From an uncultured bacterium (GTDB taxonomy: Bacteria; Desulfobacterota; Desulfobacteria; Desulfobacterales; JAHEIW01): a DNA stretch of 31,080 bases. Below, piece after piece: positions 1 through 29,735 of this stretch (its first letter is position 1; each line of letters starts with the position of its first letter). The notes beneath the pieces are model-generated. The model worked only from the letters and a program-made list of their open reading frames with translations, searched no databases and was not told the DNA's origin. The translations under genes and the position numbers were made by a program. The stretch spans positions 1-31,080 of the forward strand of contig CBDUUO010000001.1 of assembly GCA_965370395.1 (NCBI GenBank), given 5' to 3'.

Positions 1-57
1 TCGTAAAAAGATCGCTTTTCTGACTTTTTACGAGATTATCAATAGTCAATATTCAAT
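1..57. repeat. REP-like inverted repeat fused to a heptamer-periodic tract (cut by window edge)
   Basis: TCGTAAAAAG (1-10) / CTTTTTACGA (24-33) perfect inverted repeat, followed by ATTATC-AATAGTC-AATATTC-AAT (35-57). Lies just downstream of the mvhD stop and may act as a terminator or stabiliser. Confidence 0.7.
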
Positions 58-65
58 GTATTTCT

Positions 66-497
66 TCAGGCCGCCTTGTTTTTCGATATCCGAATCGGAT
101 TGGGGCCCAACTCTTTTATTTTTTCAGTGATTTCGGTCGCATATTGCGCAAAGCGCGGTCCTTCGCTGGACGACAGATTGTACATTTGGGCCCGTTCGCC
201 GCCAACACCGATCGTCTCCAATATCTTCTGGGCCTGCTCTACCCGCCTGCGTGCCCTTAAATTGCCGGAGTTAAAATGACATTCACCTTCCAGGCATCCA
301 ATGACGGCCACGCCGTCAGCACCTTTTTCAAATGCCCGCATGATATGAATCACATCCACTTTTCCGGTGCATGGAACCCTTACGATCTTGACGTTTGTCG
401 GATATTGCAATCGCATCGAACCTGCCAGGTCCGCAGCCGTGTACCCTCAGAAATTACAGCAAAATGCGATAATAACCGGTTCAAAATTTTCAGCCAT
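66..497 (-). CDS. mvhD: MvhD/FlpD-type [2Fe-2S] hydrogenase delta subunit, selenoprotein (U17), 143 aa
   Basis: Reading upstream of the ORF-track start gives MAENFEPVIIAFCCNF-TGA-GYTAADLAGSMRLQYP, the canonical MvhD N-terminus. TGA at 447-449 is in frame. ATG at 497 has a GGAGG Shine-Dalgarno. Downstream motifs are VPCTGKV and GCLEGECHF. Confidence 0.95.
417..433 (-). promoter_or_regulatory. Putative bacterial SECIS hairpin of mvhD
   Basis: 13 nt after the UGA: CGGACCU-GGC-AGGUUCG, a 7-bp stem (one G-U) with a G-led loop 20 nt from the UGA. Confidence 0.7.
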
Positions 498-552
498 TTT
501 TTCCTCCAGATTAAAACTCGTTGCACTGCTATATAGCTATGGTGAATCTATT

Positions 553-684
553 AATTTCGAAACTCGAATATCGAAATCCGAAACAAATCCGAATATCAAA
601 TGATCAAAATTCAAAACTCCTTTAGAACATTTGGATTTAAGATTTAGCATTTGTTTCGAATTTCGGATTTCGTGCTTCGGATTT
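553..684. repeat. Heptamer-periodic imperfect inverted repeat (about 130 nt) between hdrL and mvhD
   Basis: Left arm TTCGAAA-CTCGAAT-ATCGAAA-TCCGAAA-CAAA-TCCGAAT pairs with right arm TTTG-TTTCGAA-TTTCGGA-TTTCGTG-CTTCGGA-TTT. Confidence 0.85.
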
Positions 685-734
685 TTTTTAGTTATTTGCC
701 TTAAATACCGAATTTTCACCTCCACCTTCGCCTT

Positions 735-3700
735 TTAAAGGACACCTTCTAGTAGCGCATCCACCTTACAAATAATCTGATCATCCTCGTACCAGTTGAG
801 CTGAATCGCTTTGGCCGGACATTCCGCCGTACAGATGCCGCAGCCATGGCAGAGGGCCTCATCGATTTCACTGACGCCGTCCGCATTAATTCTGGGCACA
901 TCGTACGGGCAGGATCGCACACAGATCAAACAGGAGGCACACTTGTCGGCTTCAACCTGGGCGGTGACCGCCGATAGCGTTAATTGCGGCTGGGACAAAA
1001 ATGTCACCGCCCGCGAAGCGGCCGCATAGGCCTGTGCAATGCTTTCGGATATCAGTTTGGGGCTATGTGCGGTGCCGCACACAAAAATCCCTTCGGTGGC
1101 CATATCGACCGGCCGTAATTTCACGTGGGCTTCCATGAAATAGCCTTCCGGCGTGCGGGCCAGTTTCACAATGGATGACAGCTCCTCGGTATCTTCGGCT
1201 TCCATACCGGCACTGAGCACCAGCAAATCGGTACTGACCTTCAGCTTTCGATTGAGCACGTGGTCGGTAAACGTAACCTCAACACCGTCTTTTGCGGCTT
1301 CGGCCACCGGCGGATCTTCGGGATCAAACCGGAAAAAGAAAACCCCCTGGCGCCGGGCCTCGGTGTAATAGTCTTCCAGAAGGCCATAGGTGCGGATATC
1401 GCGGTACAGCACATAAATTTGGGCATCCGGATATTTTTCCTTGATATGCAGTGCGTTTTTAACGGCCGTCTGACAGCAGACCCGGGAGCAATTGGGATTC
1501 TCATCGTTGCGCGATCCGATGCACTGGATCATAACCACCTGCTTGGGCTCCTCGAGTTCGCCTTTTTGCATGCGGTCGGCCAGCTCGAGTTGCGTCATCA
1601 CGCGCGGGTCATCTCCGTACAGGTATTCCTGGGGGCGATACTCGTGAGCGCCGGTGGCCAGAATAACCACGCCATGCGTAATTTTGCGCTGCACCACATC
1701 CGGGCCCACCAGAATTTCGGTGGTGAAGTTGCCTTTAAAGCCGGAAAAACCGACGACCAGCGAATTGGTGATCACCTGAATCTTTTCATGGGAGGTGACC
1801 CAGGAAACCAGGTCAGCGAGGTATTCACCGATATCGGCGCCTTCAATGGTTGCGGTCAGTTGTTTGGCCAATCCGCCCAGCTCGGCCTCTTTTTCAATTA
1901 AAATCACCTCATAGCCCTGATCTGCCAGGCCCCGGGCGGCATTCATGCCGGCCACACCCCCGCCGATGACCAGGCCTTTTTGAATCACCGGGATTTTCTT
2001 TTCCTGCAGCGGATGCAGTGTTCCTGCACGGGCCACCGACATGCGCACCAGGTCTTTGGCTTTTCCGGAGGCCGTTTCTGCGGTTTCGGAGTGCACCCAG
2101 GAATCCTGGTTGCGAATGTTGGCCATCTCAAACAGGTATTTGTTTAATCCGCAGGACTCCATGGTGTCCTGGAAAATAGGTTCATGGGTTTTGGGGCTGC
2201 AGGCCGCTACCACCACCCGGTTGAGCTTGTGTTCTTTGATGATCTCTTTCATCTGGTCCTGGGAATCCTGGGAGCAGGTAAACAGATTCTCCTGGGCGTA
2301 GACGACGTTGGGCAGCGTTTTGGCATATTCGGTCACACCCTTGACATCCACCACACTGGAGATGTTCACCCCGCAATTACAGACAAATACCCCCACCCGG
2401 GCATCCTGGTCGCTCACATCAATTTGTTCCGGAACTTCCACACTGCGGGTCAGCGTGTTGCGCGCCGCTCCCAGACGCGCGCCGGCGGCACAGGCCGCCG
2501 CACTCGCTTCGGTAATGGAGCTGGGAATGTCTTTGGGTTCCTGAAACACGCCGCAGGCGTAAACGCCCGGGCGTGTGGTTTTGACCGGGGTAAAGGGGTG
2601 CGTAAGGGCAAATCGGGAATCGTTGAGTTCAACACCGAGCCGCTCGGCCAGCTGAACGGTAGACTCCGGCACCTGCAGGCCGACCGACAGCACGACCATA
2701 TCAAATTCTTCAATCTGTAACTGGCCGGCATCATCCATGTAGCGAATGCTCAAATTTCCGGTATCACCGATTTCATCGATTGAATGAATTCGCGATTTGA
2801 TAAACCGAATGCCGGCATCTTTGGCGCGGTTATAATATTTCTCGTAATCTTTGCCAAAGGTGCGGATATCCATATTGAAAACCACACAATCCAGATCTTC
2901 ATCGGCATGTTCTTTGGCAATCATGGAATCTTTAATGGCATACATGCAGCAAACCGACGAACAGTAACTATTGCCGCATTGGTTGGTATCTCTTGAGCCG
3001 ACGCATTGCAGCCAGGCGATCTTTTTTGGATCTTTGCCGTCTGAGGGCCGTTGCAGATGTCCCATGGTCGGGCCCGAGGCGGCCAGGATACGTTCAAATT
3101 CCAGGCTGGTCAGCACATTGGGGCTGGTTTTGTAATGATAGACGTTTTCAAGGGGGGAGGGGTCATAGGGCTCGCTGCCGGCCGTAATAATAACGGAGCC
3201 GACTTCAATTTCCTGAATTTGGGCTTGCTGACTGTGATCAATCGCATTGGCCAGACAGGCCGCCACGCACTGATAGCACTCGCAGCAGTAGCCGCAGTTC
3301 AGACAGCGGGCGGCTTCCGCCCGGCCTTCCTCTTCGGCATAACCCAGTTCCACTTCATTAAAATTGCCTTTGCGCTTATCAACGGCAAGTTCGGGCATCT
3401 TGGCGCGTTCCACAATGGGTTCGTCTTCCGCAACGGGACGGTAAACCGGGTTTTCATTTACAACCGGCTCACGGCCTTCAGCCATGTCGCGTTTTTCAAT
3501 ATAGCGCAAGATCGACTCCGCCGCCTCTTTGCCGGCACCGATGGCGCCGATAGCCACCCAGGGACCGGTCTGCAGGTCACCGCCGGCAAACACCCCCTCG
3601 TGTTCGGTCGCATAGGTGATGGAGTCGACTTCGGTCGTTCCCCAGCGGGTATAGGTTAGCCCGGTAATATCCTCCAGCGCAGAGAGATCCGGTCTCTGGC

Positions 3701-5165
3701 CGATGGCCGGGATCAGCTGATCGATTTCAATTTCATACTCGCTTCCCGGAATCGGTATGGGACGTTTACGGCCCGATGAGTCGGGTTCGCTGAGCTCCAT
3801 GCGAATACAGCGCAATCCGACCACCTTGCCATCCCGGGTTAAACTCTCCTGGGGTGCCGACAGATAGGTGATTTGAACGCCCTCATCTTCGGCGGCCTGG
3901 ATTTCTTCTTCCCAGGCTGGCATTTCATTGCGGCTGCGCCGGTAAACGATATTGACTTCGGCGGCTCCCAGCCGCACAGCCGCGCGGGCCACATCGATGG
4001 CAACGTTTCCCCCGCCGATAATCGCCACCTTCTTGCCGGTGGCGGCTTTGCCGGTCAGATTCACTTCTTTGAGAAAATCAACGCCCTGACGAACGCCGCT
4101 GGACTTTTCGCCGGGGATGCCCAGTTCAATACCCTGGTGCGCGCCGATCGCCAGATAAACGGCCTTGTAACCGTCATCCAGCAGGCCGTCGATGGTGACG
4201 TCGCTGCCCAGCGCCGTATTGGTCTTGAGTTCCACACCCAGGTTGGTAATGACTTCGATTTCCCGGTCTAAAATCTCGCGCGGCAGGCGGTGGGCGGGAA
4301 TACCGACCCGGAGCATGCCGCCCGGTTCGGGCAGAGATTCAAATATGGTGGATAAAATGCCTTTTTTGGCCAGGTGGTAGGCACAGGAAAGCCCGGCCGG
4401 ACCGGAGCCGATAATGGCGACCTTTTCCTTTTTGAGCGGGGCACATTTAATTTCCACCTTGCGGGGATCAAACTTATCGGCTGCCAGGCGCTTTAAGTCC
4501 CGGATCGCCACCGGTTGTTCCACTTCGCAACGGCGGCAGGCATCTTCACACCCGTGGGGGCAGATGCGCCCCAGCACACCGGGAAGCGGCAGGTCTTCCA
4601 TAATGATTTCCAGGGCTTCCTTATACTTGCCCACTTTGACCATCTGCACATAGCCCTGCACATTCAAGCCACCCGGACACGCCAACCGGCACGGGGCCTT
4701 GTCTGCCTTCTGAATGGCATAGGCGCCGGGTATGGCCTGGGCGTATTGCTTGAAAGCGGCCTTTTTGGTTGCCAGGCCTTCGTCATATTCGCTCGACAGA
4801 TCTACCGGACAGACCGTGGTACACTCACCACAGCTGGTACATTTGGAAAGGTCAATATAGCGCGGGTTTTGACGAATGCGGGCTTTAAAATCCCCCGGTT
4901 CGCCTTCAAGTTCTAAAAGTTCGCTGTTGGTTAAAAGCTCAATGTTTAAATGCCGGCCGACCTCGACCAGTTTAGGTGAGATGATTCACATCGCACAGTC
5001 GTTGGTGGGAAACGTCTTATCGAGCTGAGACATCAGTCCGCCGATGGCAGATGACTTTTCGACCAGATGAACCAGGTAACCGGAATTGGCCAGATCCAGA
5101 GAGGCCTGCATCCCGGCAATTCCGCCGCCGACAACCATTACAGATCCATGGACTTTGTCCGTCAT
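735..5165 (-). CDS. hdrL: HdrL-type heterodisulfide reductase A-like flavoprotein (HdrA modules plus a GltD/NfnB-like NAD(P)H module), selenoprotein (U60), 1476 aa
   Basis: ATG 5165 with AAGGAG SD. MTDKVHGSVMVVGGGIAGMQASLDLA...LDKTFPTNDCAM-TGA-IISPKLVEVGRH continues in frame (TGA 4986-4988) into the 1316-aa ORF. Motifs: CTSCGECTTVCP, CPHGCEDACRR, GSGPAG, GGGNVA..YRR, CSSVCC, VFVCNCG, VVVAACSP, GGGVAG, CSRVCC and two C-terminal CxxCxxCxxxCP. Confidence 0.93.
4953..4970 (-). promoter_or_regulatory. Putative bacterial SECIS hairpin of hdrL
   Basis: 15 nt after the UGA: CUGGUCG-AGGU-CGGCCGG, a 7-bp stem (two G-U) with an AGGU loop 22 nt from the UGA. Confidence 0.65.
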
Positions 5166-5231
5166 ACCGTCTTACTCCTTTGGGTAATCATAATTTGACT
5201 TTGATACTTGAACAGACAGAGATGATCAGCG

Positions 5232-5260
5232 TTCGCAATTCACGCCGGTGAAAGCGCGAA
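5232..5260 (-). other. Hairpin/palindrome at the predicted hdrL transcription start
   Basis: Minus strand TTCGC-GCT-TTCAC-CGGC-GTGAA-TT-GCGAA, starting about 7 nt below the predicted -10. Confidence 0.45.
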
Positions 5261-5266
5261 GGAGCG

Positions 5267-5295
5267 AACTTACTTATTTTAATTCATTTTGTCAA
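5267..5295 (-). promoter_or_regulatory. Sigma-70 promoter of hdrL-mvhD
   Basis: Minus strand TTGACA-17 nt-TAAGTT, about 100 nt upstream of ATG 5165. Confidence 0.65.
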
Positions 5296-5507
5296 CCGAT
5301 ATTTGCACTAACCTCGCCTTGTTCAACGCTGGATTGCGATACCTGTTTGCCCGCTTTGCAATCAAAAATACGCTTGAAACCGACTCCTGTGCGTGATAGG
5401 TTTTTGAGCTTATGCAAGCAGGTGTCATTCCACACTGTGAACGAGATCAGTATTTACACCCAGCATCCATTCGTGCCTTTTGGATGCTTTATTAGGAATC
5501 ATTCATC

Positions 5508-7085
5508 ATGCCAGAACAACAGCGTTCAATCATTAACATCGGTCTGGTGGGCGGCGGGGACTTTTGCAAGGAAATCCTTGAAAAAACAACCGCCGTTTAT
5601 GAAGAGGCGGAAATGGTGGCGCCCATAATAGCGGTCGCCGATCCGGATCCTGAAAGTCCCGGCCGGAAACTCGCCAGCAAGCTCGGCCTGTTGACGTTTG
5701 ACGACTACAAGCAACTTTATGACCCAAGATACAGCATTCACCTGATTATTATCCTGACCCCGCAGTCGCAAATTTTTGAAAATATTTTAGATACCCGCCC
5801 CTCCCGCATCAGAATCCTTACTTACCAGGTGTTTCGCATGTTCTGGAAAGCCATCGGTCAGGAAGAACAAAAATTGCGGGAACGAACCAAAGAAATGGAG
5901 ACCATCCTAAACGGTATCGATGACTTTATTCTGGTGATTACCCCGGACATGGAAATTCTGGAGGCCAATGCATCTTTTCTAAACAAAATAGGATACAGCC
6001 ACGATAATGTGATCGGCAAAAAATGCCATGAAATCTACTTCAACCTGGCAGAGCAGTGTAAACCGGAAGAAATAGACTGTCCGTTGCAAGAAGTGGTTCG
6101 CAATAAACGACCCGCAAGAAAAATTCAAACACGCGTGTTGCCCAACGGCGAAAACCGCTATTACGAGGTCAACATCTACCCCATCTGGGAAAAACACGGC
6201 AAGGTCTCAAAATTCATCCACATCAGCCGGGATATTACGCAACACAAAAGGGAAGAAGCAGAAATTACCCGTCGCCTGGAACAAATGGTCGAAGAGCGAA
6301 CCCGGCAATTAAAGGAAACTCACAAGAAACTGCTCCACCAGGACAAGATGGCTTCGTTGGGCAAACTTTCCGCTTCAGTGGTCCATGAAATCAACAACCC
6401 CATCGCCGGCATCCTGAATTTGATTATGCTGATGGAACGCATCGTTGAAGAAGATACCATCGGCACCAAGGAAATCGATCAATTCAGCCGGTACCTGGCG
6501 CTAATGGAAACCGAAACGCGGCGCACCAGCCGGATTGTATCCAATCTTTTGGCCTTCTCGCGTCAATCCAAAATGGAGCTCAAACTAATCAGCCTGAATC
6601 GGCTGATTGAACAGACACTGTTTTTAAACTCCAATCTGCTCAAAATAGATGGGGTAAAAGTGGAAACCGATCTTGACCCGGACCTGCCGGATATGGTCGG
6701 CTCTGAGGACCAGCTGCAGCAGGTGTTCATGAACCTGGTTTCGAATGCCGCGGAAGCCATGGAATCCAAAGACGGCGGTCGTCTGCGCATTGAAACCCGG
6801 CACTCGTTGCGCGACGATAAACTGCTGGTCGCTTTTAAAGACACCGGCATCGGCATCCCGGAAGCAAATTTATCGAAGCTTTTTGAACCGTTTTTTACCA
6901 CCAAAAAGAAAGGCAAAGGCGTGGGGCTGGGCCTTTCGGTGGCCTATGGCATCATCCAGGAACACGGCGGTTCCATCTATGTAAAATCCAAGGTGGAAAA
7001 AGGCACAACGTTTAACGTCAGGTTTCCTTTAAAACCGGCCTCAGACAAACTTGACCCGCATGGAGGTTTCAGTGAGCAATATTAA
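5508..7085 (+). CDS. Cytoplasmic sensor histidine kinase: N-terminal Rossmann-like (Gfo/Idh/MocA-like) domain, PAS, HisKA, HATPase_c
   Basis: INIGLVGGGDFC...IAVADPD...HLIIILTP N-terminus. PAS with GKKCH..C..CP. H-box VVHEINNPIAGI, N-box NLVSNAAEAM, DTGIGI, FFTTK, GVGLGL. No obvious TM helix. Confidence 0.9.
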   Translation: MPEQQRSIINIGLVGGGDFCKEILEKTTAVYEEAEMVAPIIAVADPDPESPGRKLASKLGLLTFDDYKQLYDPRYSIHLIIILTPQSQIFENILDTRPSRIRILTYQVFRMFWKAIGQEEQKLRERTKEMETILNGIDDFILVITPDMEILEANASFLNKIGYSHDNVIGKKCHEIYFNLAEQCKPEEIDCPLQEVVRNKRPARKIQTRVLPNGENRYYEVNIYPIWEKHGKVSKFIHISRDITQHKREEAEITRRLEQMVEERTRQLKETHKKLLHQDKMASLGKLSASVVHEINNPIAGILNLIMLMERIVEEDTIGTKEIDQFSRYLALMETETRRTSRIVSNLLAFSRQSKMELKLISLNRLIEQTLFLNSNLLKIDGVKVETDLDPDLPDMVGSEDQLQQVFMNLVSNAAEAMESKDGGRLRIETRHSLRDDKLLVAFKDTGIGIPEANLSKLFEPFFTTKKKGKGVGLGLSVAYGIIQEHGGSIYVKSKVEKGTTFNVRFPLKPASDKLDPHGGFSEQY

Positions 7086-8409: not shown

Positions 8410-8410
8410 C

Positions 8411-15627: not shown

Positions 15628-15635
15628 CTTCCGTA

Positions 15636-18323: not shown

Positions 18324-20111
18324 CTAAAATATGGCGTCGAATTTACACTTATTAAAACAGGTCATGCATTTGATGCACTTTTCCTTGTCAATAAAGGCAA
18401 CTTCTTTCTTTTTCCAGGTAATCGCTTCCACCGGACAGCTTCGGAAGCAAAGTCCGCATTTGGTACACATTTCCGGCTCCACCTCGAATTTTAAAAGCTC
18501 AATACAGCGTTTGGCTGGACATCGTTTTTCATAAACATGGGCTTCATATTCATCCTTAAAATACCGTAAGGTCGAAAGAACCGGATTGGGTCCGGTCTGA
18601 CCCAAACCACAAAGAGCCGCTTCTTTAATCGTGTCTGAAAGTTCCTCCAAGGTCTCAATATCTTCAGGTGTTCCCCGACCTTCGCAGATTTTTTCGAGCA
18701 GCTGTAAAAGACGCCGCGTGCCCTCTCGGCAGGGTGTGCACTTGCCGCAGGATTCGTCCTGGACAAAATCCATAAAAAACCGGGCCATATCGACCATGCA
18801 GGTATTTTCGTCCATCACGATGGCCCCGCCGGAACCCATAATGGCGCCCACTTTGGCAATTTCCTCATAGTCAATAGGAATATCCAGCTTTTCTTCGGGT
18901 ACGCAACCGCCCGAAGGCCCGCCAAGCTGAACGGCTTTAAATTTTTTCTTATTCGGGACCCCGCCGCCGATATCATAAATCATGGTTCTCAGGCTGGTGC
19001 CCATCGGCACTTCAACCAATCCGATGTTGTTGACATCTCCGGAAAGCGCAAACACTTTTGTTCCCTTGCTGCTTTCGGTACCGACACTGGCATACCATTT
19101 CCCGCCGTTCATGATAATCTGCGAAATGTTGGCCAGGGTTTCGACATTATTTAAAATGGTCGGTTTTTCCCATAAACCTTTGTGGGCCGGAAACGGCGGC
19201 CGCGGGCGCGGCATGCCGCGTTTGCCTTCAATCGATCTCATCAGTGCGGTCTCTTCGCCGCAAACGAACGCACCGGCGCCCTGGTAAATGTCAATGTCGA
19301 AGTCAAAGCCGGTTCCCAGGATATCTGTTCCTAGCAGCCCGTACTCTCGGGCCTGTTTAATGGCAATTCCCAATCTTCTGATGGCCAGCGGATATTCTGT
19401 TCGCGCGTAAATGTATCCCTGATGGGCATTGATCGCCCGGGCGGCAATCAGCATGCCTTCTAGAACAGCATGCGGATCAGCCTCCAGTATGCTCCGATCC
19501 ATGAAAGCACCCGGGTCGCCTTCGTCCGCATTGCACAAAACATATTTGATCTCGCCGGGACTCTTGCCGGCAAATTCCCATTTCAATCCGGTCGGAAAAC
19601 CGGCTCCGCCGCGCCCCCTTAAGCCCGACGTTTTTACCTCTGCGATGATCTGTTCCGGACTCATCTCCTGCAAGGCTTTGGCGGCTCCGAAATAACCGTC
19701 TCTGGCAATGTACTCATCGATGACCTCCGGATCGATGGCCCCCTTGTTGCGCATTGCCCAGAACACCTGGTGCTTGAAAAAGGGAATTTCGTTCATATTG
19801 GGAATGGTTTCTTTAGAGGCCGGTTCGACGTAGAATAGTTTTTTTACAGGACGGCCTTTGAGAAAATGCTCCTCGACGAGGTGAGGAACGTCTTTGGTTC
19901 TCAGTTTCTGGTAAAAGATACCTTCGGGCTGCACCAGCATAACCGGCCCGACAGCGCAAAAGCCATTGCAGCCGGTTTCAATAATTTTAATTTCATCAGA
20001 AAGCTCTCGGCGTTCCAGCTCTTTTTGAAGCGCTTCCTGAAACACGCCACTCCCACTTGCTTGACAGCCTGTACCACCGCACAACATCAACTGAGTTCTT
20101 ACCTTATTCAT
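18324..20111 (-). CDS. NuoF/HydB-like NADH-binding FMN Fe-S subunit, 595 aa
   Basis: N-terminal CGGTGC..GCNGFC [2Fe-2S], [57 protein letters not shown] and two C-terminal [4Fe-4S]. ATG 20111 has an AGGAG SD. Confidence 0.92.
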
Positions 20112-20131
20112 GCTGGACTCCTGCATGAGAT

Positions 20132-20280
20132 GATTGACTATTTTCGATTGACGATTGAATATTTAAGGATTTCAGCCTAATTGAAAATTTACTATTGAAT
20201 GGATAATGTTTAACCGAAAGCTTTAAAAATAAAATGATAGAATTCCTCCAATCATCAATTATCAATAGTCAATATTCAAT
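20132..20280. repeat. Heptamer-periodic imperfect inverted repeat between nuoE-like and nuoF-like genes
   Basis: GATTGAC-TATTTTC-GATTGAC-GATTGAA-TATTTAA-GGA ... TCC-AATCATC-AATTATC-AATAGTC-AATATTC-AAT. Confidence 0.85.
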
Positions 20281-20346
20281 TAACCCTATTGCCATGATCT
20301 AATATGTTTTTAATCTCAGATAATTTCATGTTGGTTAAAACGTTCT

Positions 20347-20841
20347 CTATTCGTACTTATTAAGGGTTTCAATGACTTTGTCGGCTTTGACAGCACCGTA
20401 AGTATCCTGATCCACCACCACAACAGGCGCCAGTCCGCAGGCCCCCAGACATCGAACGGTTTCCAGAGAAAAACGCCGATCTTCGGTGGTGCATCCTTCT
20501 TTCACCTGGTATTCGTTGCCGATACGGCTGATCACTTCTTTAATGCCCTTCACATAGCAGGCGGTGCCCATGCATACCTTGATCAAATGCCGGCCTTTGG
20601 GTGTCAGGTAAAAAAGTGAATAAAAGGAAGCAATTCCGAAAACCTCGCTGCGGGAAAGATTGAGGCCGTCGCTGATATAGTCAATCAACTCAACCGGCAG
20701 CCAGCCGACGACATCCTGGCATTCCCGTAAAACACCAATAATCGAGCCTGGAATGTCTTTGTTGTCGTCAATGATCTCATCAATCTTAGACCACATTTCA
20801 TTTGTAATATCGGAATGTTCAGGATAGGCGTCAAGTGCCAT
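20347..20841 (-). CDS. NuoE/HydC-like [2Fe-2S] subunit
   Basis: VCMGTACYVKG and VRCLGACGLAPV. GAGG SD. Confidence 0.92.
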   Translation of the reverse strand: MALDAYPEHSDITNEMWSKIDEIIDDNKDIPGSIIGVLRECQDVVGWLPVELIDYISDGLNLSRSEVFGIASFYSLFYLTPKGRHLIKVCMGTACYVKGIKEVISRIGNEYQVKEGCTTEDRRFSLETVRCLGACGLAPVVVVDQDTYGAVKADKVIETLNKYE

Positions 20842-20968
20842 TTACAGGTTTCCCTCGCTTACTCGCGTTTATGACGGATACGATTGAGCCGAATCGCAGA
20901 CAATCATCAAAGATGCGTCATCAATTACACAAAAAAACACTAGGTGGGGTCAATTGCATAAGGGAGTG

Positions 20969-20997
20969 TGTATGCCACAGTGTAATAAAAAAGTCAA
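20969..20997 (-). promoter_or_regulatory. Possible sigma-70 promoter of the nuoEF-like operon
   Basis: Minus strand TTGACT-17 nt-CATACA with an extended -10 TG. Confidence 0.45.
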
Positions 20998-21110
20998 TGA
21001 GAACATAATGTTTTCGTGCTTGATATCTGTATGCTTGACGGCGACAATTTGCTGAACTAAAATATCTTCTTCTCAAAAACAAACTATTTATACCGCTTTT
21101 CATAATAATG

Positions 21111-21186
21111 TTCCGAATTACGGAATTGGGGTGTAAGCGCTTGTACGGTTGTAGAAAAAAACGTTTGAATACCGGAACGTTTTTTT
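21111..21186. promoter_or_regulatory. Two palindromes upstream of the purine cluster (candidate operators or leader hairpin)
   Basis: TTCCG-N5-CGGAA (21111-21125) and AAAAAAACGTT-N10-AACGTTTTTTT (21155-21186). Confidence 0.35.
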
Positions 21187-21210
21187 GATAACCACTATAA
21201 GAGGGCAGCC

Positions 21211-22050
21211 ATGAAAAACATGAAGCAACGATTGGCGGAAACCATCGCTTTTATTAGAAGCAAGACCAAGGATGCGCCGTATATCGGTTTGTTAACCGGT
21301 ACCGGCTTGGGTGAAAGTGCCGAATCGATGGCGATCGACACGACCATCAAATATCAAGATATTCCGCATTTTCCCATCTCAACAGTTCAAACCCATATCG
21401 GCCGCATGCTTGCCGGTGATATGAACGGGTGCCCGGTTATTGCCATGCAAGGCCGGTTTCATCTATACGAGGGCTATAGTCCGTTTGAAGTCACTTATCC
21501 CATAAGGGTGATGCAGCAGCTTGGCGTAAAGATTCTGATCCTTTCAAATGCAGCCGGCGGCTTGAATCCTGAATTTACGCCCGGCGATATCATGCTAATA
21601 ACTGATCATATTAATCTCACCGGAACAAACCCGCTCATCGGTTCCAATGAAGACAGCTGGGGCACACGCTTCCCCGATATGACCCGGGCGTATGATCAAG
21701 CGCTAATCGCTGCGGCTGAGAGCATCGCCAAAACCGCCGGGGCCCATCTGCAAAAAGGAATATATGTGGGGCTCACAGGGCCTTCGCTCGAGACGCCGTC
21801 GGAAGTGAAATTTTTGCAGACCATTGGAGCCGAAGCCGTCGGTTTTTCAACCGTGCAGGAAGTTATTGCCGCAGTCCACAGTGATATGCGGGTGCTGGGG
21901 TTATCAACGATTACCAATGTCCATCATCCGGACGATCCAGTTCCGGCTACTGTTGAAGAAATCATTGAAGTGGCTAAAGGGGCGATTCCCCTGCTGGAAA
22001 CGATTATGAAAGGGGTTGCTGAAAAAATATATGAAACTGAAATCTGCTGA
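21211..22050 (+). CDS. punA: Purine nucleoside phosphorylase (trimeric PNP-I type)
   Basis: GTGLG, MQGRFHLYEGY, SNAAGGLN, DHIN, GPSLETPSE, VGFSTVQE and SxITN. Confidence 0.9.
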   Translation: MKNMKQRLAETIAFIRSKTKDAPYIGLLTGTGLGESAESMAIDTTIKYQDIPHFPISTVQTHIGRMLAGDMNGCPVIAMQGRFHLYEGYSPFEVTYPIRVMQQLGVKILILSNAAGGLNPEFTPGDIMLITDHINLTGTNPLIGSNEDSWGTRFPDMTRAYDQALIAAAESIAKTAGAHLQKGIYVGLTGPSLETPSEVKFLQTIGAEAVGFSTVQEVIAAVHSDMRVLGLSTITNVHHPDDPVPATVEEIIEVAKGAIPLLETIMKGVAEKIYETEIC

Positions 22051-23347: not shown

Positions 23348-23377
23348 GTATTGCCTCGAGAATTTTGCTCATAACTA

Positions 23378-23535
23378 CTTAGTTGTTGCATTCGCTCAAT
23401 CGTCAATTGGAGGAGTGGAGCTATATATATTTTGGATTTCGGATTTTAGATTTTAGATTTAATGACCGACAAAACATCTGAGCATTAAATCTTAGCCTGT
23501 TTCAATCCGCAATCCAAATTCCAAAATCCAAAATC
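23378..23535. repeat. Composite intergenic repeat: head shared with the 29544 element plus a heptamer-periodic inverted repeat
   Basis: Head CTTAGTT..TTCGCTCA..CAATTGGA (23378-23420). Arms TTTGGAT-TTCGGAT-TTTAGAT-TTTAGAT-TTAATG / CATTAAATC..AATCCGC-AATCCAA-ATTCCAA-AATCCAA-AATC. Confidence 0.8.
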
Positions 23536-23546
23536 AGCGTGATCCC

Positions 23547-24857
23547 ATGCCTTACGATCTGGTGATCCATAATGGAACCATTGTTACCGTCAATGATTCA
23601 TTTGAAATTATCCCTGACGGTCTGCTTTGCATAAAATCGGGCAAGCTTCAGCGCGTCGGATCTTTGGTCGGCAATCAATCGCCTCCGGCGGCGGAAGAAA
23701 CCATCGATGCCGAGGGCGGTCTCATTATACCGGGTCTGGTGAACACCCATACCCATCTTCCCATGACCCTGTTTCGCGGTCTGGCCGATGATTTGCCGCT
23801 GGATATCTGGCTAAACGAGCATATCTTTCCTGCTGAAGGCGCTCATATCAATCCGAATAATGTTCGCTGGAGTACTCTATTAGCCTGTGCTGAAATGTTA
23901 CTTTCTGGAACCACCACGTGCTGTGATGGGTATTTTTATGAAAACACGGTGACTGAGGCCGTACAAACCAGCGGCATGCGGGCGGTATTGGCCCAGGGCG
24001 TGATTGACTTTACGGCACCGGGGGTGCCGGATCCGAAAGAAAACATTAAGATTCCCCATGCATTTGTTACTAAATGGCAAAACCCGTCTTCTCTGATCAG
24101 CCCATCGGTATTTTGCCATTCCGCATATACCTGCAGTGCCGAAACGATGAAACAGGCCAAAGCGCTTTGTGTTGAAAACGGATTGCTCTTTCAGATTCAC
24201 GCGGCAGAAACCCAAAGTGAGGGCCGACAAATCCAGGATGAACATCAGTGCACACCGATTCAATATCTGGACCAATTGGGCATATTGGATGAAAATACCT
24301 TGCTGATTCATTGTGTTTGGATCAATGATGAAGATATCGAAATTATTGCCGCACGCAAAGCCTGCATTTCCCATAACCCGGAAAGCAATGCCAAATTGGC
24401 CGCGGGGATCGCGCCGATACCTGAAATTTTGAGGTCCGGCATCACTGTTGGTCTGGGCACGGATGGATGTGCAAGTAATAACAATCTGGATCTGTTTCAC
24501 GAAATGGACATGGTGGCCAAACTACACAAGACTGCGACATTTGATCCAACCACAATGGATGCGAGAAGCGTGGTTGAGATGGCAACCATCGGAGGCGCCA
24601 GAGCCATTGGCTTGGGTAGGCATATCGGCTCTCTTGCAGTCGGCAAACGGGCGGACGTGATCATCATCGATACCCGAACCCCGCACCTGACGCCCATGTA
24701 CCATCCGGAGTCTCATATCGTTTATGCGGCGAAGAGCTCAGACGTGCGCGATGTCGTGGTGGATGGACGCGTCCTGGTTCGCAATCGAAACGTTCTCAGC
24801 TTGGATGTTGAGAAAATTATGCTCAAGGTCCGAGAAATTGCCCGTCATATCAAATGA
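23547..24857 (+). CDS. Amidohydrolase, MtaD/DadD-like, paralog 2
   Basis: NTHTH, FRGLADDL, HIFPAE, CHSAY, HAAETQSE, SNAKLAAG, GTDGCASNN. Confidence 0.88.
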   Translation: MPYDLVIHNGTIVTVNDSFEIIPDGLLCIKSGKLQRVGSLVGNQSPPAAEETIDAEGGLIIPGLVNTHTHLPMTLFRGLADDLPLDIWLNEHIFPAEGAHINPNNVRWSTLLACAEMLLSGTTTCCDGYFYENTVTEAVQTSGMRAVLAQGVIDFTAPGVPDPKENIKIPHAFVTKWQNPSSLISPSVFCHSAYTCSAETMKQAKALCVENGLLFQIHAAETQSEGRQIQDEHQCTPIQYLDQLGILDENTLLIHCVWINDEDIEIIAARKACISHNPESNAKLAAGIAPIPEILRSGITVGLGTDGCASNNNLDLFHEMDMVAKLHKTATFDPTTMDARSVVEMATIGGARAIGLGRHIGSLAVGKRADVIIIDTRTPHLTPMYHPESHIVYAAKSSDVRDVVVDGRVLVRNRNVLSLDVEKIMLKVREIARHIK

Positions 24858-26563
24858 ATTTAAATGAAATTATTAAAGCTGCGCACGGCGAAAAACCCGT
24901 TGATCTGCTTTTAACCAACGCGCGGATCATCAATGTATTTGCGGGCGAGGTCGTACCGGACGCAATTGCAATCAGTGAAGGAGTGGTTGTTGGGTTCGGC
25001 CCATACGAGGCCAAAAATGTCGTCGATGTAAACGGCCGATATGTCGCACCCGGTTTTATTGATGGGCATGTTCATATTGAAAGCTCAATGACCTGCATTT
25101 CCGAGTTCGCCCGGGCGGTACTGGTGCATGGTACCACGACCGTGGCAGCCGACCCCCATGAAATCGCCAATGTGCTAGGGGCATCTGGAATCGAATATAT
25201 GCTGCAGTCGGCAGAACAACAACCCATGAATATCTATTTCACGCTGCCCTCGTGTGTGCCGGCTACCGATATGGAAACCGCCGGCGCCCGCTTAACCGCC
25301 GAAGATCTGAGGCCATTTTTAAATAAAGAAAGAATTATCGCGCTGGCTGAGATGATGAATTTTCCGGGAGTTATCTATCGGGATCCGGATGTTTTGGCAA
25401 AAATAAGCGCTGCCAAGCAGCAAAAAAAGCCGATCGATGGTCATGCACCCGGGCTCAAAGGACAGGAGCTTTATGCTTATATCTCAGCCGGTATTCAAAG
25501 TGATCATGAATGCACCACCGAGCAGGAAGCCAGAGAAAAGCTCATGGCCGGGATGTATATCATGATCCGTCAAGGGACCGGTGCCAAAAATTTGCAAGCG
25601 CTGCTTCCTGCGGTAAACGAAAAGACATCCAGGCGCATGATGTGGTGCACCGATGATCGCCACCCCCATGACCTGATCGCAGACGGTCATATCGATTCTA
25701 TCATGCGCGAAGCCATTCAGTCCGGTCTGGATCCGCTTTTAGCCATTCAGATGGCCACCCTCAATCCGGCAGAGTATTTTGGTTTATATCACCTGGGGGC
25801 GATTGCACCCGGCAAGCAGGCCGATCTGGTCCTATTTTCCGATATTGAAAAGCCGGTCATTGAACAGGTTTATTACCGGGGAATCTTAACAGCCGAAAAC
25901 GGGAAAATCCGACCCAAAATTCAATTTCCGGCCGCGGCCACCGTCCCCCCGACGATGCATGTCGACCTGCAAAACATCGATTTCAGCATATCTGCAGAAA
26001 AAAAACGCATTCGGGTTATTGAAATTGTGCCTGAACAGGTGATTACCCGGCAGCGCATCGAACAGATCCCGGTTAAAAACAATCAGGCCGTAAGCGACCC
26101 ATCAAGGGATTTACTCAAAATCGCTGTGGTGGAACGCCACTTGGGTACCGGCAATATCGGCAAAGGGTACGTTAAAGGCTTCGGCCTGAAGCACGGCGCT
26201 CTGGCCTCCAGTGTTGCCCATGATTCGCACAATATCATCATCGTGGGCACCTCTGATGAAGACATGCAGGCCGCATTGGAAGCGGTGGTGGAAATGGGCG
26301 GCGGGCTGGCTGCGGTTTCTGATGCCAGGCTCCTGGCCGGTCTGGCGCTGCCGGTTGCGGGGCTGATGTCTTTGGAACCGCTCCGGACGGTGCGCGATCA
26401 GCTGGAGCGCATCATTGGAATTGCGCATGATATGGGCGCGGCTTTAAAGGATCCTTTCATGACCCTTTCTTTTATGGCCCTGCCGGTGATACCGGAATTA
26501 AAGTTGACCGACATGGGACTGATCGATGTGAATAAGTTTGAAGTCGTTTCATTATTCGTATAA
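24854..26563 (+). CDS. ade: Adenine deaminase
   Basis: PGFIDGHVHIESS, ADPHEIANV, LAEMMNFPGV, DGHAPG, SDHEC, CTDDRHP, SVAHDSHNI. ATGA overlap with the upstream gene. Confidence 0.95.
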   Translation: MNLNEIIKAAHGEKPVDLLLTNARIINVFAGEVVPDAIAISEGVVVGFGPYEAKNVVDVNGRYVAPGFIDGHVHIESSMTCISEFARAVLVHGTTTVAADPHEIANVLGASGIEYMLQSAEQQPMNIYFTLPSCVPATDMETAGARLTAEDLRPFLNKERIIALAEMMNFPGVIYRDPDVLAKISAAKQQKKPIDGHAPGLKGQELYAYISAGIQSDHECTTEQEAREKLMAGMYIMIRQGTGAKNLQALLPAVNEKTSRRMMWCTDDRHPHDLIADGHIDSIMREAIQSGLDPLLAIQMATLNPAEYFGLYHLGAIAPGKQADLVLFSDIEKPVIEQVYYRGILTAENGKIRPKIQFPAAATVPPTMHVDLQNIDFSISAEKKRIRVIEIVPEQVITRQRIEQIPVKNNQAVSDPSRDLLKIAVVERHLGTGNIGKGYVKGFGLKHGALASSVAHDSHNIIIVGTSDEDMQAALEAVVEMGGGLAAVSDARLLAGLALPVAGLMSLEPLRTVRDQLERIIGIAHDMGAALKDPFMTLSFMALPVIPELKLTDMGLIDVNKFEVVSLFV

Positions 26564-26611
26564 CAGTGTAAATCATGCTATAGGCTCAGGCTTCAGCCGT
26601 GTATTTTCTCG

Positions 26612-26842
26612 TCACCGGCAGCTGGCTTCTGGCATTAAGGTTTCAGGAAACAGATGACGGAGGACAGAAAACAGAAGTCAGATAGGGTAGTTTCATTCTC
26701 CAGTTTTTACCATCTGTCTTCTGTCGTCTGACTTCTGTCCTCTGACACCTGACACCTGAAACCTGCTTGTCCGCCGTAGCCTTTTAGGCGAAGGAGGGAC
26801 ACCTGAAATCTATTTGAGACCAGCTGCCAGTAACCAGAAGCA
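26612..26842. repeat. Nested periodic inverted repeats with an inserted REP-like hairpin
   Basis: Outer IR CCGGCAGCTGG / CCAGCTGCCAG. Inner heptamer IR (ACAGA-type left arm; TCTGTCT-TCTGTCG-TCTGACT-TCTGTCC-TCTGACA-CCTGACA right arm). A 36-nt GC hairpin (26762-26797) is flanked by GACACCTGAAA direct repeats. Confidence 0.85.
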
Positions 26843-26869
26843 ATGAGCTGGAAGTCGGCCTACTTGCCA

Positions 26870-26899
26870 TTGACACTAGTGCACCTAATATCTTATACT
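26870..26899 (+). promoter_or_regulatory. Sigma-70 promoter of the DRTGG cassette
   Basis: TTGACA-18 nt-TATACT, about 110 nt upstream of ATG 27012. Confidence 0.65.
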
Positions 26900-27011
26900 T
26901 TCTTTGCTTTTGCGCTTTAATTTGCTTGATTATTAGATAAAAATTTCCAAATAACCGGTTTGAAGAATTTAATCTGTCACCTAAAACTGAGTGGAATGGT
27001 GGAATTAGCAA

Positions 27012-27365
27012 ATGAGACTCTCAGAAATTATAGATACGCTGGATGCGACACTCCTGATTGGAGAAGATAACCTGGACCAGGACATTACGACTTGCGGCGC
27101 CAGTGATTTGATGAGCGATATCCTGGCCGCAGTTTGTGAAGGCTGTATCCTATTAACCGGTTTGGCAACGGTCCAGGTGATACGGACAGCCATCATAGCC
27201 GGGGTCGGGGCGGTGGTATTTGTCAGGGGCAAAAAGCCTCCCCGGGAGGTGGTCGAAATGGCCGGAGCCCAGGGGCTACCGTTAATATCGAGCCCCTATT
27301 CCATGTTTGTCTCCTGCGGCAGACTGCACGCCTGTAATATTACAGGGCTTGATGGACAACGATAA
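27012..27365 (+). CDS. Stand-alone DRTGG-domain protein 1
   Basis: GASDLMSDILA..LLTGL..QVIRTA...AVVFVRGKKP pattern. Confidence 0.8.
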   Translation: MRLSEIIDTLDATLLIGEDNLDQDITTCGASDLMSDILAAVCEGCILLTGLATVQVIRTAIIAGVGAVVFVRGKKPPREVVEMAGAQGLPLISSPYSMFVSCGRLHACNITGLDGQR

Positions 27366-27408
27366 CCGATCATTCACAATCTGACTCTACAGTAAATTTC
27401 AAGCGACG

Positions 27409-27849
27409 ATGTCTAGATTCAAAAAAAGCTTTCATATAAAAGGTAGAGATTTTATCCGCGCCGGAGAGGCCGCGATCAACGTTCAAAATCTTCTCAAGTC
27501 GATGGATTTTGATTCCCGCTTGGTTCGGCGAATCGCCATCTGCGGCTATGAAAGCGAAATGAATGTGGTCATGCACGGCGGCGATGGTTCCTTGAGCATT
27601 GAGGTCGACACGGACAAGCTGATTTTAGAAATATCAGATGATGGCCCCGGCATCGAAGATATTGAACTGGCCATGCAGACCGGTTACTCGACAGCCAACG
27701 ACGATCACCGTGAAATGGGTTTCGGAGCCGGTATGGGCCTGCCGAATATGAAAAAAAATTCAGACCAGATCCAGATTGAGTCAAAAAAAGACCAGGGAAC
27801 CGTGGTTCGAATGTTTTTTTTTCTGCCTGAGGGAGTGAAAACAGATTGA
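27409..27849 (+). CDS. RsbT/RsbW-like anti-sigma Ser/Thr kinase (GHKL)
   Basis: YESEMNVVMHG, DDGPGI, GYST, GFGAGMGLPNMKK, GT.V. Confidence 0.85.
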   Translation: MSRFKKSFHIKGRDFIRAGEAAINVQNLLKSMDFDSRLVRRIAICGYESEMNVVMHGGDGSLSIEVDTDKLILEISDDGPGIEDIELAMQTGYSTANDDHREMGFGAGMGLPNMKKNSDQIQIESKKDQGTVVRMFFFLPEGVKTD

Positions 27850-29156
27850 GTCAAAAACAAACATCAACCTATTTTGTCCGTTTTGACCAAGACCTCTGCG
27901 CCGGCCATGGCTCATGTCTGCGGGTCTGCCCCACCAAAGCCATCCGCCTTAAACACAAAAAGGCCATCCGCATCGTGGAACAGTGCATCGGCTGCGGCGA
28001 ATGCATTCGCTCCTGTCGTGAAGGCGCAATCAGTGCAGCCACCGAAGGCCCCGAAGTGCTGGGGAAAGATCATGTGTCCATCGCCCTGGTTTCACCGGTG
28101 CTCTATGCGCAGTTTCCCGGTGTGATGCCCAAAGACGTCCTGCTGGGTCTCCGGCATATGGGATTTCAGCACACTATCGACATGTCTTATTTTCTTGAAA
28201 TATTTCAATTTGCGACCGAAGAATTTATCAGTCGCAACCGAAAATCCCAAATGGCCCCCTGGCCCCTGATTTCACCGGTCTGTCCGGTGGTAGTGCGACT
28301 CATCGCTTTTCAATTTCCCAACCTTTTACCCAACGTCTTGCCGGTATTAAGGCCGGTGGCCCTCATGGCCCGCGAAGTCAAATCGCGTCTGATTCCCGAA
28401 TACATCGAAAAGGGAAAAGAGGTTGTCCTGTATTACATCAACCCCTGCCCGACCAAAAAAGATCCAGCATGCTTGCCCTCCCGCAAACGACCGGTGCCCA
28501 CTGAAATCGCCCTGGGAATTAACGATATATATCCTGAACTCATTAAATATGTGGATCAGATTAAAGCGGCTGACGGCATTCCTTTTTATGAAACCCGTTT
28601 TGAATACGAAACATGTGCAACCGCTAACGCGTCCATGTGGGGAATGTCCGGTGGTGAAATCGCCGACATGGATATTGATAAATCTCTGGCTGTTTCAGGC
28701 ATGGAGGAAACCATCAGCTATCTTGAGAAAATCGAAATGGGGTTGTTTCAGGATATTGAATATATCGAATTTAGAACCTGCCGCGAAGGCTGTTTAGGTG
28801 GTGTGCTGACCGCTATAGACAAATATCTTGCCAAAAGCGCCGTTCAAAAGATGATCAAAAGGTTTGGACTCGGAAGACGTCTGCACCGTGAAAACATTCT
28901 GCGGATGTATGAAAAAGGAGAATTTCAAACCGAAAAAAAACCTTCTAAATTGACCAGTTTATTCGGCGCTCACAAAGAAGCCCTGTCTCTGGACTCCATG
29001 CAGAAAATTGAAAAGGTCATGGACCTCATCCAAGGGACAGACTGCACGGCATGTGGTGCTCCGAACTGCCGGACGTTTGCTGAAGATGTGGTCCGGGGAG
29101 ATGCCGCCTTGAAGGAATGTCTTTTTGTCGGTGCGCAAAAAAAGAAGAAGGGTTGA
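27846..29156 (+). CDS. [FeFe]-hydrogenase-like (non-canonical, probably sensory) Fe-S protein with N-terminal ferredoxin and C-terminal FeS domain
   Basis: CAGHGSCLRVCP and CIGCGECIRSC. Degenerate H-cluster motifs SPVCP, NPCPTKK and FRTCREGCLGG. C-terminal DCTACGAPNC..C. TTG start overlapping the upstream TGA. Confidence 0.8.
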   Translation: MSQKQTSTYFVRFDQDLCAGHGSCLRVCPTKAIRLKHKKAIRIVEQCIGCGECIRSCREGAISAATEGPEVLGKDHVSIALVSPVLYAQFPGVMPKDVLLGLRHMGFQHTIDMSYFLEIFQFATEEFISRNRKSQMAPWPLISPVCPVVVRLIAFQFPNLLPNVLPVLRPVALMAREVKSRLIPEYIEKGKEVVLYYINPCPTKKDPACLPSRKRPVPTEIALGINDIYPELIKYVDQIKAADGIPFYETRFEYETCATANASMWGMSGGEIADMDIDKSLAVSGMEETISYLEKIEMGLFQDIEYIEFRTCREGCLGGVLTAIDKYLAKSAVQKMIKRFGLGRRLHRENILRMYEKGEFQTEKKPSKLTSLFGAHKEALSLDSMQKIEKVMDLIQGTDCTACGAPNCRTFAEDVVRGDAALKECLFVGAQKKKKG

Positions 29157-29209
29157 TCCGCTTTATTGACAAACCTATTTGGACAGCCGGCTGGAAAGGA
29201 TATTGACAG

Positions 29210-29548
29210 TTGTTGGTAAAAGATCTGGTGGAAAAATTCGACCTATCAGTAGCTGCCGGGAAAAATGGACTGGATCGCGAGATCATGGACGGTTACTGCG
29301 GTGATTTGTTAAGCGAAATTATGGGCAACGCGCCGGCAGGGTGTGCCTGGATGACCGTTCAGGGGCATCAGAACATTGTCGCGGTGGCCGTGCTGCGTGA
29401 AATGGCCGCTATCATTATCACCGGTGGTCAAAAGCCGGATGAGGAAACCATCCAGAAGGCGGATCAGGAAGGCATTCCCATTTTATTGTGGCCAAACTCA
29501 TCCTTTAGCCTGGCCGGCCGCATTTTTAGCGCCGGCGTCGGAACTTAG
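29210..29548 (+). CDS. Stand-alone DRTGG-domain protein 2
   Basis: GYCGDLLSEIMG..AWMTVQGHQNIVAVA..AAIIITGG. TTG start after GGAAAGGA. Confidence 0.82.
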   Translation: MLVKDLVEKFDLSVAAGKNGLDREIMDGYCGDLLSEIMGNAPAGCAWMTVQGHQNIVAVAVLREMAAIIITGGQKPDEETIQKADQEGIPILLWPNSSFSLAGRIFSAGVGT

Positions 29549-29735
29549 TTCGCTTCGCTCACAATTGGAATGATGGAAAGATGGAATACTGGAATATTGG
29601 GTCTGTAATCCAAACACTGAAGTTATGCGTTTTTGACCATTATTCCATTATGCCATTATTCCATGTAGGCGGCATAAAACCAGTGTCGTTAAAAGCTACA
29701 CACTTTCAATATGTTATATAATTTCCGAGACGTTG
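29544..29735. repeat. Octamer-periodic inverted repeat with head and tail sequences
   Basis: GGAATGAT-GGAAAGAT-GGAATACT-GGAATATT-GGGTC (29567-29603) / GACC-ATTATTCC-ATTATGCC-ATTATTCC (29635-29662). Head CTTAGTTCGCTTCGCTCACAATT. The right boundary is approximate. Confidence 0.8.

Follow-up and report, generated by a model that had tools for sequence, protein, structure and literature searches.

The question raised by the stretch of DNA analysed here is why long hairpins, with arms made of tandem 7- or 8-nucleotide (nt) units, stand again and again between its genes. The stretch, called the window below, comprises positions 1 to 31,080 of contig CBDUUO010000001.1 (C1 in our labels) and belongs to a Desulfobacterales metagenome-assembled genome of 832 contigs and 4.08 Mb (GCA_965370395.1; 48% GC, 86% complete), an assembly that is incomplete and itself broken at the repeats studied. 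An earlier inspection of the letters only (the sequence-only reading) had described five such elements, at 553-684, 20132-20280, 23378-23535, 26612-26842 and 29544-29735, and a partial one at 1-57, and had proposed non-autonomous mobile DNA, slippage amplification or an RNA structure as their basis. The sequences at these positions and the output of Tandem Repeats Finder (TRF) agree with that description, since arrays of 7- or 8-mers face reverse-complement arrays and the unit words are the ones given. On balance, the elements are probably gene-less versions of insertion elements with hairpin arms and belong together with those intervening sequences (IVSs) of rRNA that bear an open reading frame (ORF).

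A chance origin of the elements is excluded. Genome-wide, TRF returned 865 rows of period 7, 416 of period 8, 472 of period 9 and 93 of period 6, while one dinucleotide shuffle gave 93, 85, 74 and 23, respectively. Among 990 array pairs lying no more than 300 nt apart, 277 are reverse-complement and 19 direct. The gene calls behind all intergenic and genic counts come from our own rough model; they leave an intergenic remainder of 581 kb, which holds 1388 arrays and 250 inverted pairs, as against 120–140 arrays and not a single inverted pair in each of five dinucleotide shuffles of the intergenic DNA. The genome-wide scan for periodicity plus inverted repeats, which had been suggested as a check, thus came out clearly above chance. 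Moreover, TRF overlooked a reverse-complement partner, located no more than 300 nt away, for 151 of the 831 unpaired non-coding arrays (3 with shuffled flanks), and about 680 solo arrays remain. Since arrays cluster in the 100 nt next to contig ends, where 246 were counted and 80 expected (a threefold enrichment), their true number must be higher than the number counted. Merging of the pairs gave 257 elements with lengths of 45–375 nt (median 128 nt; median arm 34 nt), which take up about 37 kb of the genome. Most of them lie in spacers of co-directional genes (157); convergent spacers hold 24 and divergent ones 15, another 54 are at contig edges, and 7 are inside genes, in a genome that is about 85% coding. 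Counting only gaps of at least 100 nt, the occupied share is 156 of 855 where the neighbouring genes are co-directional, 24 of 159 where they converge and 15 of 240 where they diverge. The median element starts 30 nt past the upstream stop codon and ends 54 nt ahead of the next start, with 104 elements nearer to the upstream stop and 50 nearer to the next start. The density of inverted pairs per 100 kb is 6.8 in this genome and 2.4–3.2 in loci of other Desulfobacterales, and a small control of 39 loci (286 kb) from other phyla had none.

The arms, tandem 6- to 10-mers, are diverse, with 104 canonical unit words among the 277 pairs. In an all-against-all BLAST comparison (at least 80% coverage and at least 70% identity), 199 of the 257 elements nevertheless fall into 24 clusters (sizes 65, 25, 22, 16, 10, 9 and smaller), and copies on separate contigs are up to 95% identical over 242 nt (94% over 233 nt in another case), with the loops counted in. 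The earlier phrase of a conserved architecture without conserved sequence is therefore right between families and wrong within them, where the loops are conserved as well. Every element of the window has sequence relatives elsewhere in the genome. In the family of the hairpin at 23420-23538, an alignment of 13 paralogs and 2 orthologs contains five gaps of exactly 7 nt, confined to the 5' arm in C29 and to the 3' arm in C196 and C105b, and affecting both arms in C177; the arms thus gain and lose whole units, as the proposal of slippage amplification had it. In addition, five of the 13 paralogs show, by eye, sequences outside the arms that are complementary to each other (GGAGC to the left, CTCCA to the right). 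In these copies an inner hairpin thus lies within a TGGAGTA-type outer one, as in the spacer between the two amidohydrolase genes (amh1/amh2) of a congener (genome G028, whose genes are about 80% identical in nucleotide sequence).

The gene order nuoF-(DRTGG)-nuoE / mtnP-amh1-amh2-ade-DRTGG-HATPase-FeHyd-DRTGG-PHP is kept in 11 public relatives, and the same junctions are filled in some of them and empty in others, so the comparison of orthologous loci that had been called for revealed no fixed position. The element between the two amidohydrolase genes (23399-23538) has orthologous copies in L084 and L088, while the junction is empty in L081, L082, L085 and L138. At the amh2/ade junction, the genes overlap by 4 nt in the window, L139 and L089 have short gaps of 10 and 26 nt, respectively, and eight relatives have gaps of 186–271 nt with hairpins of four different unit words, which are often nested. 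The ade/DRTGG1 junction is empty in four relatives (about 160 nt, promoter only); it holds CAGGTGT-type hairpins in three genomes including that of the window, and GACGAG-type ones in two. L082, L089, L138 and the congener have no element at the DRTGG2/PHP junction. At three junctions the congener shows the state opposite to the window, with amh2/ade filled and both ade/DRTGG1 and DRTGG2/PHP empty. Furthermore, a composite with CAGGTGT outer arms and a GACAGAA inner hairpin is found at amh2/ade in the congener and one gene on, at ade/DRTGG1, in the window. The nuoE/nuoF spacer in most relatives either contains a small DRTGG gene or is a gap of 23–90 nt without arrays; in the congener and L041 the DRTGG gene is accompanied by an array that is about 21 nt shorter than that of the window. 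Compared with the congener, the window has lost the DRTGG gene and has gained a second, inverted arm and about three units. The interior of the element is inverted in L013 (136 nt at 79% identity on the opposite strand), and L016 has a hairpin of a different word, AAGTGATT. The DRTGG-domain gene itself, of about 118 amino acid residues, lies between nuoE and nuoF in L001, L003, L017, L041, L203 and the congener; it is missing from the window (20127-20346), and other genomes retain just remnants of its 3' end. In L090 and L013, which represent one public contig, the nuoE match covers residues 1-63 only and the first amidohydrolase is split with residues 338-376 duplicated, both rearrangements adjoining hairpin elements.

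Variation of this kind is also present within the population. A 2091-nt contig from run X4, with 17 differences and thus from a near-identical strain, joins position 26647 to 26804 and lacks the 156 nt of 26648-26803, i.e., the inner GACAGAA hairpin together with what adjoins it on the right. No letters are shared at the joint, and the empty site is a palindrome, TTTCAGG/TGAAA (the slash marks the joint), with the absent DNA at its centre. In sequence, this variant resembles either an insertion into the apex of a hairpin or the precise reversal of one. Dispersed families, filled and empty orthologous junctions and population polymorphism all speak for the part of the sequence-only reading that saw non-autonomous mobile or copied DNA in the elements. 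The depth spikes at the elements in metagenome runs indicate repeat abundance only.

None of the window elements contains an ORF, according to the ORF list and Pfam, which confirms that they carry no dedicated gene of their own, but sister elements elsewhere in the genome carry an ORF of the Pfam family 23S_rRNA_IVP (PF05635) in the loop. The co-occurrence with small four-helix-bundle or IVP-like ORFs, suggested earlier as a check, is thus real. There are five IVP loci in the genome, one of which is split in two and one below the cut-off. Two of the five fill hairpin loops with arms of the two abundant families, C77:4523-4840 (CAGGTGT) and C88:8067-8354 (AAAGTGACT), and two further ones have periodic arrays alongside. 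Among sampled genomes of the order, 50 of 61, this one included, have the family, with up to 25 matches per genome. The best IVP locus of each of 28 other genomes was then examined for arms (one more locus was excluded since its flank was too short): flanking inverted arms beat all 50 shuffles in 24 of 28, an arm score of at least 30 was reached by 22 of 28, and 18 of these 22 are periodic at 7–9 nt. The unit word of the IVP-flanking arms varies between genomes. In the congener, the IVP copy, which has an in-frame TGA, is enclosed by GACAGAA arms, the unit of the polymorphic inner hairpin of the window. Several IVP matches in the order (L161-L190 and others, including the congener) contain one to three in-frame stop codons, which suggests frequent decay of the ORF. 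Decay has been reported for the S23p ORF of Coxiella (PMC4990558).

A further regularity is the strand layout. In 249 of the 277 pairs G outnumbers C in the 5' arm and C outnumbers G in the 3' arm; 26 pairs show the opposite and two are ties, and the C-first exceptions come from a small number of families, that of 553-684 among them. Whichever strand is read, G-rich sequence leads into the apex in the 5'-to-3' direction, and because this property of a palindrome is identical on both strands, the layout is not relative to the genes. The same bias appears in 29 of 31 pairs from loci of relatives, in 20 of 22 IVP-flanking arms, and in the additional partners found beside unpaired arrays (112 versus 33). 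Two explanations of the layout were tried. Avoidance of Rho was dropped as the cause of a G-rich 5' arm, as solo arrays on the sense strand are G-rich and C-rich in nearly equal number (97 and 89). Supply of a Shine-Dalgarno sequence for the IVP ORF is not a convincing cause: a Shine-Dalgarno-like word stands at 13 of 22 IVP loci and the arm overlaps the start codon at 4 of 22, with rough start calls.

The reading as gene-less IVS-like insertions is favoured because it brings together the sequence families, the turnover at junctions, the nesting, the sister copies carrying IVP genes and the arm changes by whole units. In such a process, the elements would spread as DNA into intergenic spacers just past stop codons, and insertion would prefer the apex of an existing hairpin, in the way that IVSs replace tetraloops of rRNA. 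Stems of tandem units could survive slippage by re-pairing one unit out of register. By analogy, the elements are probably tolerated inside operons since the duplex in the transcript would be cut by RNase III or be inert, and the mechanism that moves them has probably left its mark in the nearly constant G-rich 5' arm. Several results weigh against this. No movement was observed, and the filled and empty states could be deletions; their polarity would require an outgroup for each site. Contigs of three runs (X4, X12 and X18) join 20168 to 20323 with 6 nt of microhomology, 20169-20322 being absent, and this variant has the appearance of a deletion by slippage. At the DNA level, each IVP ORF occurs in a single copy, while their arms match 30–54 other loci. 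No target-site duplication (at the one clean filled/empty joint), classical terminal inverted repeat or transposase was found. Neither a reverse transcriptase nor an RNase III was found in this 86%-complete assembly, and for want of the former an RNA-mediated route is without local support; the congener has one of each. By the criterion used, only 7 of the 257 elements are nested genome-wide, so that apex targeting rests on few well-resolved cases. Comparison of each arm with its own partner and with the arms of other copies gave no consistent signal of co-evolution: the own partner ranked above the median in 62 of 66 cases in the largest cluster and in 6 of 25, 1 of 22, 1 of 16, 0 of 10 and 4 of 9 in the next five, figures that the normalisation may bias. 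Finally, RNAalifold gave a weak consensus of −1.82 kcal/mol for the 23420-23538 family, with a double change in 2 of 14 pairs.

If the elements were selected as mRNA structures, they would be RNase III sites or barriers to 3' exonucleases that set the levels of neighbouring cistrons. REP (repetitive extragenic palindromic) elements in E. coli are known to set the relative levels of neighbouring cistrons. Such a role would suit the occupancy of 18% of co-directional gaps against 6% of divergent ones, and the position closer to the upstream stop codon than to the next start. RNA-library contigs (X17 and X18) cover parts of genes and end near the repeats as DNA contigs do; one spans nuoE to nuoF over a shortened spacer, a weak point in favour, as such contigs may derive from DNA. 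For the 157 elements between co-directional genes, oriented to the mRNA strand, the arm mismatches are balanced (285 G·U versus 279 A·C, p = 0.83), and so is fold stability, the sense fold being the more stable one in 83 elements and the antisense fold in 71 (p = 0.27). Within families the loops lie both ways round with respect to the genes (9:7, 3:13, 5:8 and 5:7), and the solo arrays have no preferred strand. None of these tests points to selection on the transcript, and a function that requires only a duplex stays compatible with them. As presence also varies between congeners and inside one population, we regard selection for an RNA role as unlikely. An origin in place, by slippage expansion and inverted copying through template switching (quasi-palindrome correction) with no movement at all, would account for the exact 7-nt indels in the arms, for the greater length of the window nuoE/nuoF array over those of the congener and L041, and for the large number of unit words together with the roughly 680 partnerless arrays. 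It does not explain why 199 of 257 elements form clusters with conserved loops and flank modules, nor the same composite at different junctions in different genomes. With a dozen full-length paralogs for each window element, this origin is already strained, and we hold it to be quite unlikely.

Mobilisation as REP elements or REPINs (hairpins formed by paired REPs) by the Y1 (IS200-like) transposases of the genome, in the manner of RAYTs (REP-associated tyrosine transposases), would agree with extragenic palindromes in hundreds of copies and with 12 Y1_Tnp matches in open frames of 287–356 residues, besides one 95-residue fragment. These genes, on C42, C24, C34, C341, C343, C540 and other contigs, mostly encode about 330–355 residues with a helix-turn-helix-like C-terminal part. 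Yet none of the 12 has a flanking inverted array pair of its own, the flanks of eight chosen from them gave few or no repeated matches, and the arms consist of many kinds of tandem unit instead of one conserved palindrome of 20–40 nt. The co-occurrence with TnpA(REP) that had been put forward earlier therefore goes no further than the presence of Y1 genes, and this mobilisation seems very unlikely. The regular period of 7–8 nt, the constant G-rich layout and the enclosure of IVP genes by arms could also be expected of binding sites for a periodic nucleic-acid-binding protein, possibly an IVP pentamer, or of G-quadruplexes like those proposed for the GGGAATC repeats of Xanthomonas. A single sequence-specific binder is unlikely in view of 104 canonical words, and most units are without the G-runs that a quadruplex needs, the G residues of the 5' arms (30%) being spread out; we find either form of this explanation most improbable.

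Each of the window elements folds into a long hairpin (−27 to −110 kcal/mol). At the contig end, the partial element at 1-57 is a composite. Its heptamer array (37-57, unit TCAATAG; TRF 39-57, period 7) repeats exactly a section of the right arm of the element at 20132-20280, and bases 1-33 form a separate hairpin repeat with a 10-bp stem. The region 1-57 has 30 matches outside C1, and the small hairpin repeat (1-36) has 22 near-full-length copies in the genome, 10 of which lie within 150 nt of a contig end. The hairpin at 553-684, in the spacer between an Hdr-like gene and mvhD, has period-7 arms at 565-601 and 654-684 (unit AAATCCG/TTTCGGA) and a fold of −39.3 kcal/mol on the minus strand. 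Its 5' arm is C-rich, which places it among the 26 C-first exceptions, and paralogs of 84% identity stand, among others, on C171 (over 134 nt) and C156 (over 114 nt). Between the nuoE-like and nuoF-like genes, the hairpin at 20132-20280 has period-7 arms at 20132-20158 and 20249-20280 (unit GATTGAC/GTCAATN). The element between the amidohydrolase genes (23399-23538) is an inner hairpin with arms at about 23420-23460 and 23503-23538 (unit GGATTTT/AAAATCC; TRF arrays 23429-23460 and 23511-23535, period 7), to the left of which 23399-23416 is a remnant of an outer TGGAGTA-type arm; the hairpin proper, 23420-23538, has at least 12 full-length paralogs of 72–84% identity.

The region after the adenine deaminase gene differs from its first description in two ways. 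It had been taken as one hairpin at 26612-26842 and actually consists of three nested ones (26615-26841, fold −99.8 kcal/mol): an outer CTGGC-type hairpin (26615-26633 / 26818-26841), a middle CAGGTNT-type one (26637-26647 / 26742-26763) and an inner GACAGAA-type one (26648-26683 / 26712-26744), with a TRF array of period 7 at 26713-26765. The inner part has at least 12 paralogs of 130–151 nt. It had also been placed inside an operon, but it sits between a stop codon and a conserved, putative sigma-70-like promoter of the DRTGG1 operon (26870-26899, plus strand; TTGACA, 18-nt spacer, TATACT), identified in the aligned junctions of eight relatives and the window; because it lies upstream of this promoter-like sequence, the element marks an operon boundary. 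The promoter appears to be kept in the relatives, with the insertions always upstream of it. The element at 29544-29735, between DRTGG2 (29210-29548) and PHP (29752-30498), is a composite of a GCGAAGC mini-hairpin (about 29551-29563), 8-mer arms of TGGAATRN (29566-29600) and CCATTATN (29637-29664), for which TRF gives period 8, and a conserved end module (about 29690-29735). Its part 29555-29670 has a paralog on C43 (83% over 106 nt). It belongs to a family of composites of about 283 nt, members of which fill entire spacers from stop codon to ribosome-binding site, and the two end modules of the family recur at 8 and 14 other places. As read from the sequence, the window elements lack features of intrinsic terminators, with no T-run after the 3' arms, AT-rich stems and long loops. 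An Rfam scan of the window at the gathering score gave no match, a tRNA scan found none, and no 23S rRNA gene is present in this assembly.

Pfam upholds the linked-gene context of the elements. An Hdr-like flavoprotein of 1316 residues (735-4685, minus strand) is encoded next to FlpD/MvhD (66-497, minus), and a NuoE-like protein (20347-20841, minus) adjoins a NuoF-like one (18324-20126, minus). The window further contains two amidohydrolase genes followed by an adenine deaminase gene, and a cluster for DRTGG, histidine-kinase-like ATPase, Fe-hydrogenase-like, DRTGG and PHP proteins. In mvhD, an in-frame TGA at 447-449 (codon 17) lies in a conserved cysteine motif (FCCNF-U-GY) and the FlpD match continues past it, so that the gene probably encodes a selenocysteine-containing MvhD with the true start at 497. 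The divergent nuoE/mtnP spacer holds a separate non-periodic repeat of about 110 nt (21083-21200), with 54 near-full-length copies in this genome at 80–100% identity and about 40 in the congener at 79–86%. In four metagenome runs no other part of the window reaches its summed contig depth; it folds well (z-score −3.76) and has no Rfam match.

As far as one genome and one order allow, bacterial heptamer repeats, rRNA IVSs and the large orphan 23S_rRNA_IVP/Avd-like protein family, unexplained for decades, appear to be parts of one system. Going further, we tentatively raise the possibility that heptamer-armed hairpins and the Avd-like IVP protein make up an undescribed class of mobile elements that homes into hairpin apexes, the forms in rRNA helices being the classical IVSs and those in mRNA spacers the elements described here, with the G-rich-towards-apex layout as a footprint of the propagation chemistry, not of selection on the transcript. 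That chemistry might be strand-specific recognition of hairpins, or templated addition of repeats at a 3' end followed by fold-back. Filled and empty sites in one natural population, the apparent apex preference and the strand layout offer handles for experiments, and the layout must be reproduced by any mechanism proposed. The elements also have practical consequences: they alter operon spacers between close strains, and, as the arrays at contig ends imply, metagenome assemblies break at them.

The closest known systems include the ORF-bearing IVSs of 23S rRNA in Coxiella burnetii and Leptospira. IVSs take the place of the tetraloops of helices 9, 25 and 45, with a stem of about 28 bp, and RNase III cuts them (PMC4990558); they share with the present elements a long terminal stem, a loop that may carry an ORF of about 120 residues for a four-helix bundle (S23p), a sporadic distribution and the lack of a known transposase. 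Insertion at the apex of an existing hairpin is a further likeness, seen here in the X4 palindrome and the nested layers at amh2/ade and ade/DRTGG1. The present elements differ in lying in mRNA spacers between protein genes, in numbering hundreds per genome, in their stems of tandem 7- to 10-mers, and in that most are without an ORF (five IVP loci against at least 257 hairpins). MITEs (miniature inverted-repeat transposable elements) are likewise short, gene-less, multi-copy, framed by inverted repeats and variable between close relatives, but here the one clean filled/empty joint (26647 to 26804) shows no target-site duplication, no parent insertion sequence bearing a transposase was found, and the only cargo ORF encodes a four-helix bundle. 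REP/REPIN-RAYT systems resemble the elements as extragenic palindromes present in hundreds of copies and often inside operons; the tandem-repeat arms, the want of one conserved 20–40-nt palindrome and the unflanked Y1 genes set the two apart.

Abundant intergenic tandem heptamers occur in large or filamentous bacteria of several phyla, the STRR (short tandemly repeated repetitive) heptamers of cyanobacteria among them. In Xanthomonas (Rehm et al. 2015, PMC4692102), GGGAATC heptamers form 70–75 convergent pairs, a layout that equals the G-rich 5' arm found here; the pairs lie mostly in co-directional gaps (7–8% divergent), nearer to the upstream ORF, and vary in length between close relatives. 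The same source describes GGGGA(C/T)T repeats in Nostoc and treats a single G-run unit per genome as a quadruplex former, whereas the 104 words here are mostly without G-runs and go with families of conserved loops and a link to IVP genes. The TAACTGA heptamers of Beggiatoaceae are similarly abundant in intergenic DNA, but consist (MacGregor 2015, PMC4679880) of one word in 169 direct sets and a single inverted one, just upstream of start codons, in contrast to the many words and inverted pairs of the present genome. Full-text searches, which left subscription journals mostly outside, gave among the papers listed none linking IVP genes to heptamer-repeat arms, and none on many-word families in one genome, apex-centred polymorphism or a general strand-layout rule. 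The components are known separately, as rRNA IVSs with S23p, as heptameric simple sequence repeats in Xanthomonas, Nostoc and Beggiatoaceae, and as REP- or MITE-like palindromes.

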